A stretch of DNA of 27,773 bases, from assembly GCA_038232115.1 (NCBI GenBank), contig JBBSIK010000001.1, positions 1 to 27,773 on the forward strand, given 5' to 3'. The DNA comes from Chloroflexia bacterium. GTDB lineage: Bacteria; Chloroflexota; Chloroflexia; QHBQ01; JADMIH01. The translations under genes were made by a program, and so were the position numbers. Every line of letters starts with the position of its first letter. Position 1 is the first letter of the stretch. Under the pieces are notes generated by a model. That model did no database searches. It saw only the letters and a program-made list of their open reading frames with translations, and was not told where the DNA came from. Below, piece after piece: positions 4,604 to 4,804 of this stretch.

Positions 4604-4798
4604 GGGCAGTAAAGTCTAACCTCGTGATGCGTGGTCAGTCCATATCGTACAGGAAGCCACAAGATACGGTCGAGACTCATAACCGCCCTAAAGGGGTGGG
4701 GATCGTTCTTTCCTGCGTGGTCAACGCCACAAGGAGATTGGCAACCTCACCACCCCTCCGAGCCACAGGAGACGATTCGATTCGAATTGTTTCCTATT
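4604..4798 (-). ncRNA. Predicted bridge RNA: 5' hairpin, target-binding loop and donor-binding loop
   Basis: Target-binding loop (4693-4756) closed by GGGGTGG/CCACCCC, with LTG ATCTCCT (4732-4738), a GTGG..CCAC hairpin and RTG AGGAAAG (4708-4714). Donor-binding loop (4604-4688) closed by GGGCGGT/ACTGCCC and AGTCT/AGACT, with LDG ACCGTATCT (4662-4670), a GTGG..CCAC hairpin and RDG ACGAG (4621-4625). The RNA ends are approximate. Confidence 0.88.
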
Positions 4799-4804
4799 AA
4801 TTCT

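Follow-up and report, generated by a model that had tools for sequence, protein, structure and literature searches.

The question raised by this locus is whether a bridge RNA carries information on its target outside its guides. The window, as we call the whole analysed stretch of 27,773 nucleotides from a Chloroflexia bacterium, contains at 4800–4762 a segment that would be the beginning of the bridge RNA of a minus-strand insertion sequence of the IS110 family. An earlier note had pointed out that this segment holds two pieces resembling the target of the element and its guides, and it had read them as an auxiliary or vestigial guide module, a trace of guide acquisition or chance. Our analysis favours a simpler reading, to which we give a probability of roughly 0.7, namely that what the note flagged is the ordinary stem-loop at the 5' end of a bridge RNA, together with the transcription start region. 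What is new here is the IS110 member itself; its 5' structural module is already known.

Boundaries, guides and promoter of the element

Judged by its sequence, the element at this site belongs to the IS110 family, lies on the minus strand and has an IS621-like bridge RNA. Its recombinase gene (4511–3354, minus strand, 385 aa) matches the Pfam families DEDD_Tnp_IS110 (PF01548, E = 5.7e-24) and Transposase_20 (PF02371, E = 4.3e-21), and the protein is 93% identical to P0001 and 77% identical to P0002. Upstream of the gene lies a non-coding left end of about 300 nt (4812–4512), inside which the flagged stretch is found approximately 250–290 nt upstream of the recombinase ORF. A comparison of the region 2500–5500 with Rfam 15 gave no RNA-family match within the element at E <= 1, the sole two matches lying outside of it. 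Near its N-terminus the recombinase carries an inserted low-complexity tract of Gly, Thr and Val (TTGTGTHTGTVTGTVTGTGNGVG, residues 43–66, window 4380–4320), which is encoded by a GTGCCCGTGACA-type repeat and is 10 residues shorter in the 93% identical relative; matches of the genome search to distant recombinase homologs begin only past this tract, at about residue 67.

For the boundaries we could make use of further copies. The genome of the window contains two more right ends at contig ends, L002 and L003, which are 100% identical to that of the window over 119 and 94 nt, and the Logan contig L043, whose recombinase is 93% identical, has both element ends. The right boundary was set by the divergence of these three sequences after ...ACCGTATCT, and the left boundary by the start CT|CGTATAAT, which is conserved in about 20 homologs. 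These homologs (33–60% protein identity) start with CT|CGTATAWT and finish with TTGACA-N15-16-CT. From the ends shared by copies and homologs it follows that the body of the element extends on the minus strand from 4812, where it starts with CGTATATT, to 3338, where it finishes with ...ACCGTAT, and that CT core dinucleotides are located at 4814–4813 (before the CGTATAWT start in the window and the homologs) and at 3337–3336 (ACCGTAT-CT at all right ends). By the same evidence TTCCT at 3335–3331 is host DNA and represents the right target. The flank of L043 departs after CT and TT.

Searches for additional copies gave little. The window genome has no further assembled left-end junction, a cluster look-up revealed no additional members of the window's lineage and a protein-based locus search of the genome contigs had no match, while a phylum-wide protein search added nothing nearer than 53%, the order being represented by only 40 genomes. 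When metagenomes were scanned with a pattern of the window-type 5' region, the sole match was L044, which lacks a bridge RNA and was rejected as chance. A donor-loop pattern scan of the genome contigs was too loose, most entries among the matches listed being chance, and was likewise discarded.

The element is located 14 nt upstream of the start codon (4828) of a DJ-1/PfpI gene, with the insertion point in a purine-rich leader, where AGGAAAG lies on one side and GAGATATG on the other, and it splits DJ-1/PfpI from its upstream DNA. In this region (window 4813–4830) the left target complements AGGAGA, the Shine-Dalgarno sequence of DJ-1/PfpI. As the left targets of most members of the clade end in CTCCT or CCCCT, the clade seems to be aimed at the antisense of ribosome-binding sites. 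The flank looks native, since the DJ-1 leaders in seven genomes of the same genus are unrelated in sequence yet likewise purine-rich around the ribosome-binding site; the idea that the right flank is an inverted left-end remnant (ATAACG after the 11-nt match described below resembles ATATACG) was rejected as unsupported. Beginning about 60 nt past the right end, a repeat of about 60 nt (3209–3269) occurs at 23 other places of the 63%-complete genome with 75–98% identity. In appearance it is a dispersed repeat of the REP or MITE kind, and the IS110 element is not inserted into it.

In the predicted fold the left end forms a target-binding loop (4759–4691, minus strand) with a basal stem of 4759–4750 and 4701–4691, followed by a donor-binding loop (4690–4604). 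Inside the target-binding loop the left target guide (LTG) ATCTCCT at 4738–4732 equals left target plus core and is followed by UGUGGC, the hairpin GUGGC...GACCAC spans 4730–4717, and the right target guide (RTG) AGGAAAG at 4714–4708 reverse-complements the core together with the right target. In the donor-binding loop the LDG ACCGTATCT (4670–4662) equals the right end plus the CT core, again with UGUGGC after it, the hairpin GUGGC...GACCAC is found at 4660–4631, and the RDG ACGAG (4625–4621) complements the CT core and CGT, the first three bases of the left end. A fold of the full-length RNA leaves target and donor loops intact. These relations hold as well in about 15 homologs with other targets, in which LTG and RTG again match the flanks and so covary with them. 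The guide polarity in the window element and its homologs is that of IS621, whose LTG is directed to the bottom strand and whose RTG to the top strand (PMC11208158). Four of the homologs, L022 and L039 (G016) as well as L026 and L041 (G033), are from unpublished genomes; the key arguments are independent of them, except that L026 is one row of the ten-lineage matrix used below.

The promoter appears to be divided between the two ends. A –35 box TTGACA (3357–3352, minus strand) is found in the right end, where it overlaps the stop codon of the transposase, and the same hexamer precedes the core by 15–16 nt in all right ends recovered. As –10 box the scan picked the hexamer TATATT (4810–4805, minus strand), and TATAAT or TATATT is conserved at left-end positions 3–8 in the homologs. 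In the excised circle the TATATT of the left end would team up with the TTGACA of the right end across a gap of 18 nt, and every homolog with both ends shows TTGACA, 17–18 nt and TATAWT across the junction of right and left end (RE-LE junction). The –35 box would act only across this junction, and a promoter split in the same manner has been described for IS621 (PMC11208160; PMC13626964). Some 7 nt beyond the –10 box, at approximately 4798–4797, lies the predicted start of the bridge RNA.

The 5' stem-loop and its target-like arms

Right behind the predicted start, the minus strand can fold into a hairpin (4797–4765) of 13 bp, AUAGGA.AC.AUUCG-AAU-CGAAU.GU.UCCUGU, with a free energy of –11.3 kcal/mol, a z-score of –3.5 and 71% of the ensemble. 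Its two arms are the target-like pieces, which confirms the idea that both can pair with each other as a 5' stem. All ten lineages examined fold a hairpin at the matching place. Within the hairpin the window and L043 show just two differences, U.G to C-G and U-A to U.G, and both keep the pairs; one of these pair-preserving substitutions (T/C) is the fifth base of the 11-mer discussed next, whose counterpart in L043 reads TTAACAGGAAA. The 5' stem-loops of the clade (window 4788–4773; L014, L016, L026, L032, L033, L047, L168 and L183), whose recombinases are 47–60% identical, consist of pentanucleotide repeats of the type TCGAATCGA / ATCGA. Such sharing is unexpected, as the sequences of IS110 bridge-RNA 5' stem-loops have been described as diverse, and it suggests either a sequence-specific role or a slippage-prone repeat.

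The 11-mer TTAATAGGAAA (4800–4790, minus strand) reaches from the end of the promoter-proximal bases across the predicted start of the RNA into the 5' arm of the stem. Direct reading and a script both found it to be exactly the same as plus 3326–3336, and its minus-sense RNA is exactly complementary to the sense-strand TTTCCTATTAA (3336–3326). As had been claimed, the match runs 5 nt past the RTG footprint, since its partner consists of the core T, TTCCT and ATTAA. The right target TTCCT (3335–3331, minus strand), which is the complement of AGGAA in the RTG, is common to the window, L002 and L003, and L043 has TTGCG at this position. The flank bases ATTAA (3330–3326, minus strand) finish the 11-nt match in the window copy only: right-target positions 6–10 are ATTAA in the window, GTACT in L002, GCTCA in L003 and GCTCA in L043. 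In L002, L003 and L043 at most two of the five extension positions could form Watson–Crick pairs, or three if G.U wobble is counted, whereby the 5' segments of L002 and L003, with their left ends unassembled, are assumed to be identical from their 100% identical right ends.

Six of the 11 matching bases (AGGAAA) belong to a fixed part of the element that resembles the RTG, and any cognate insertion will therefore give 6–7 nt of complementarity to core T plus right target. A match of at least 11 nt has a P value of 0.0046 if the rest of the flank is shuffled and of about 0.0006 with random 25-mers from the window, both values omitting the hairpin constraint and the many patterns that a reader could have noticed. 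Near-cognate target 12-mers were not enriched in the genome (175 vs 191 in a reversed-pattern control). The extra 5 nt (UUAAU vs ATTAA) are most likely a coincidence of one insertion and an AT-rich 5' leader.

The second piece, the LTG-like TCTCCTGTGGC (4772–4762, minus strand), comprises the 3' arm of the stem and the linker to the target loop. Its near-repetition of the LTG plus hairpin start TCTCCTTGTGGC (4737–4726) was verified with 11 of 12 positions and one gap. It had also been counted as one of three GCCACA modules on the plus strand, and those at 4656–4661 and 4762–4767 are correctly placed, while the middle one lies at 4726–4731 and not at 4727–4732. In dinucleotide shuffles of the 5' region the LTG-like repeat (TCTCC-TGTGGC) had P = 0.0066 and both pieces jointly P = 0.0004, and against dinucleotide shuffles the RTG-like piece (AGGAAAcAA vs AGGAAAgAA) had P = 0.045; all of these values ignore the pairing constraint between the arms, the TCCT/AGGA shared by the guides and the reader's freedom of choice. 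That the two guides share TCCT/AGGA is due to the target, which itself repeats TCCT. The resemblance takes in scaffold bases, with GUGGC after the LTG-like and AA after the RTG-like piece, and this goes against pure chance, which does not predict it. In a matrix of ten lineages the LTG resemblance of the window is the top cell, with 9 compared to at most 7 off the diagonal. Chance, which had been among the proposed explanations, is favoured for the extension into the flank; since the resemblance within the element beats the shuffles, a vestigial copy of part of the target loop retains some, if low, probability. The third GUGGC lacks a GACCAC partner of its own, neither CCAC nor CCGC being present between 4812 and 4745, and its use as an alternative strand of the target-loop hairpin was rejected, as it would clash with the basal stem.

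Guide-likeness across lineages and rival readings

The question posed in the earlier note, whether the 5' segment covaries with the flanks in homologs with different targets, could be addressed with a sister group of six elements, namely L014, L016, L033, the second element of L034, L183 and L017. Their LTGs all differ (GTGCTCC, TAGCTCC, TGTCTCC, AGTCTCC, TGACTCC and CTCTCCCC), as do their RTGs (GCGAAAG, CAGAAAG, CTGAAAG, TGAGAAG, TAGAAAG and TGACAAG), while the linker ATCGGTCTTC is unchanged in all six and the stem arms are constant as well in the five that were aligned or read. As the 5' region stays constant across six guide pairs, it does not track the target in the sister group, and by the earlier note's own criterion this speaks against an auxiliary guide. 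Similarly, the ten-lineage matrix shows no excess of similarity to a lineage's own guides over those of others (mean 5.1 vs 4.6 for LTG, 4.7 vs 4.4 for RTG). The covariation result rests on the sister group and the ten lineages, the window's own lineage being composed of the window and L043 with identical guides. The motif GTCT(C/T)C is found at the same place of the linker in sister lineages with unrelated LTGs (GGTCTTC, GGTCTCA), and part of the LTG-likeness may for this reason be ancestral linker. What is left is a guide-likeness of the arms that is real but confined to the lineage of the window, and we regard it as a minor open point.

Two of the contigs gave observations of their own. L034 (G037:C624, approximately 700–1400) has two different IS110 elements nested, where the start of an L014-type element is followed at a distance of just about 450 nt by an L019-type element (target CCAGTACCT); as the left flank of the latter resembles the N-terminal coding region of the L014-type recombinase, one bridge-RNA element apparently lies inside the gene of another. 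In the Logan contig L045 the sequence GGTTCACCCCC(N)CGCT(C/T)GTGGGGAGGAC occurs at least four times, at intervals, in the left flank of an IS110 element, an array that is CRISPR-repeat-like or REP-like, and the left target CACCCCCCGCT falls within one repeat.

These results have to be weighed against readings in which the arms carry, or once carried, guide information. In its general form, this would make the 5' stem-loop a self-paired second copy of both target guides, whose RTG-like 5' arm could bring the pairing with the right target to 10–11 nt and whose LTG-like 3' arm has the scaffold start GUGGC, either as a living auxiliary or regulatory guide or as a fossil of how pieces of the target loop become duplicated and recruited, and we consider it improbable. 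A living auxiliary or extended right target guide, in which the unpaired 5' end UUAAUAGGAAA would pair over as much as 11 nt with the top strand at the right side of the target and favour targets continued by ATTAA, can draw on the exact 11-nt complementarity at the window insertion (nominal P about 0.005 or less) and on a polarity like that of a true RTG, complementary to the top strand (cf. PMC11208158). Nevertheless it is not supported, because independent insertions, polymorphism and homologs all go against it: the extension is not reproduced in three of four insertions, the T/C polymorphism goes with its stem partner and not with the flank, and the 5' region of the sister group shows no covariation with the guides. 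Moreover, AUAGGA is locked in a stable stem with UCCUGU and so, unlike a guide segment, is not single-stranded beside its own GUGGC...GACCAC hairpin. The core C is mismatched (C instead of G), and with the inferred start at 4798–4797 the bases 4800–4798 of the 11-mer (4800–4799 if the start is 4798) would be absent from the RNA, the first two or three bases being at or just ahead of the predicted start. The 5' stem-loop of IS621 is also outside the density of the synaptic complex (PMC11208158), and altogether we find a living guide very unlikely. Even less credible is a switch in which the LTG-like 3' arm masks the RTG (UCCUG/CAGGA) and the RTG-like 5' arm masks the LTG until the recombinase binds. 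Alternative pairings of 5–6 bp can indeed be read in the sequence, but the 5' hairpin dominates the predicted ensemble with the 71% given above, the full-length fold keeps both loops, and no comparable relation is present in the nine other lineages.

The arms could also be a fossil of a partial duplication, descending from pieces of the target loop (RTG plus AA, LTG plus the start of GUGGC) that were later kept for their mutual pairing. This is a claim on origin and does not conflict with a purely structural role of the stem-loop today. It would account for a similarity that includes scaffold bases, beats dinucleotide shuffles and has the highest value in the ten-lineage matrix, and in one other lineage, L168, an LTG-like CCAATGCTC precedes the LTG CCCATGCTC by 27 nt. 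On the other hand, the likeness covers just 11–12 nt and 9 nt between otherwise dissimilar surroundings, and as the order of RTG-like and then LTG-like is the reverse of that in the loop, two separate events would have to be assumed. The presence of the linker motif beside unrelated LTGs in sister lineages counts against it, too, and the two resemblances are not independent, since the arms are complementary to each other and the guides share TCCT/AGGA. Altogether we see such an origin as unlikely, although less so than a living guide. A role at the DNA level, with the plus-strand hairpin and ATTAATTCTA as an intrinsic terminator that stops antisense transcripts running toward DJ-1/PfpI, was suggested by the scan, which flagged 4767–4795 on the plus strand as terminator-like and pointing out of the element. 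Its T-tract is weak and interrupted (5 T in 8), however, the scan gives two sites compared to 0.5 expected in only 450 nt, and the hairpins of sister lineages have no T-runs after them on that strand, which makes this the least probable of the readings.

Comparison with known bridge RNAs and meaning

The canonical 5' stem-loop, which remains our preferred reading, fits well with what is known from other members of the family. In the published consensus of bridge RNAs a 5' stem-loop stands ahead of the two loops (PMC11208160), and among IS110 elements its structure is conserved and its sequence diverse (PMC11208158; 10.1101/2025.05.14.653916). In IS621 the stem-loop is invisible in the cryo-EM map, and its deletion lowers binding and slightly lowers recombination; it is a non-guide accessory that helps the recombinase to hold the RNA and is largely dispensable (PMC11208158). 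For IS622, split bRNAs without the 5' stem-loop still worked, and including the stem-loop raised the activity slightly (10.1101/2025.05.14.653916). The window element resembles IS621 and IS622 (PMC11208160, PMC11208158, 10.1101/2025.05.14.653916) in that the hairpin is the first structural element after a start about 14 nt into the left end, in that it stands ahead of target and donor loops each made of guide, GUGGC...GACCAC hairpin and guide, and in its CT cores and the promoter split across the RE-LE junction upstream. A role of the stem-loop as a non-guide accessory like in IS621 would be in line with this. The window element differs from both in stem arms that resemble its own RTG and LTG and in the TCGAATCGA-type pentanucleotide motif common to a whole clade of Chloroflexota-type elements; the 5' end of its RNA and the function of its stem-loop are predictions from the sequence.

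Recognition beyond the four guides is not without precedent in IS110 elements. An engineered IS621 bRNA carries RTG/RDG extensions (Hiraizumi et al. 2026, PMC13626964), and common to these and the auxiliary-guide proposal is the thought that recombination might gain from longer pairing at the right target. The segment of the window forms a hairpin arm of its own at the 5' end, some 80 nt upstream of the RTG, and shows its additional pairing at just one of four insertions. In ISPpu10 a target-encoded GC-rich DNA hairpin forms a second layer of specificity (bioRxiv 10.64898/2026.03.19.712850), so that target recognition there draws on more than the four guides. Unlike there, the hairpin of the window is located in the RNA and the left end, and a hairpin of that kind is missing from the reconstructed target (…TAATAGGAAAG|GAGATATG…).

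In summary, the locus provides a well-resolved natural bridge recombinase in which boundaries, four guides and the junction promoter are readable and for which four insertion sites could be compared. The clade around it is a natural reprogramming series, with six elements that share the 5' linker and a similar scaffold and that differ in their guides. Guide information in the 5' stem-loop would call for a third module in the design rules for bridge RNAs as well as in off-target prediction. Our results indicate that no such module is needed and give a clean negative result for a tempting pattern.
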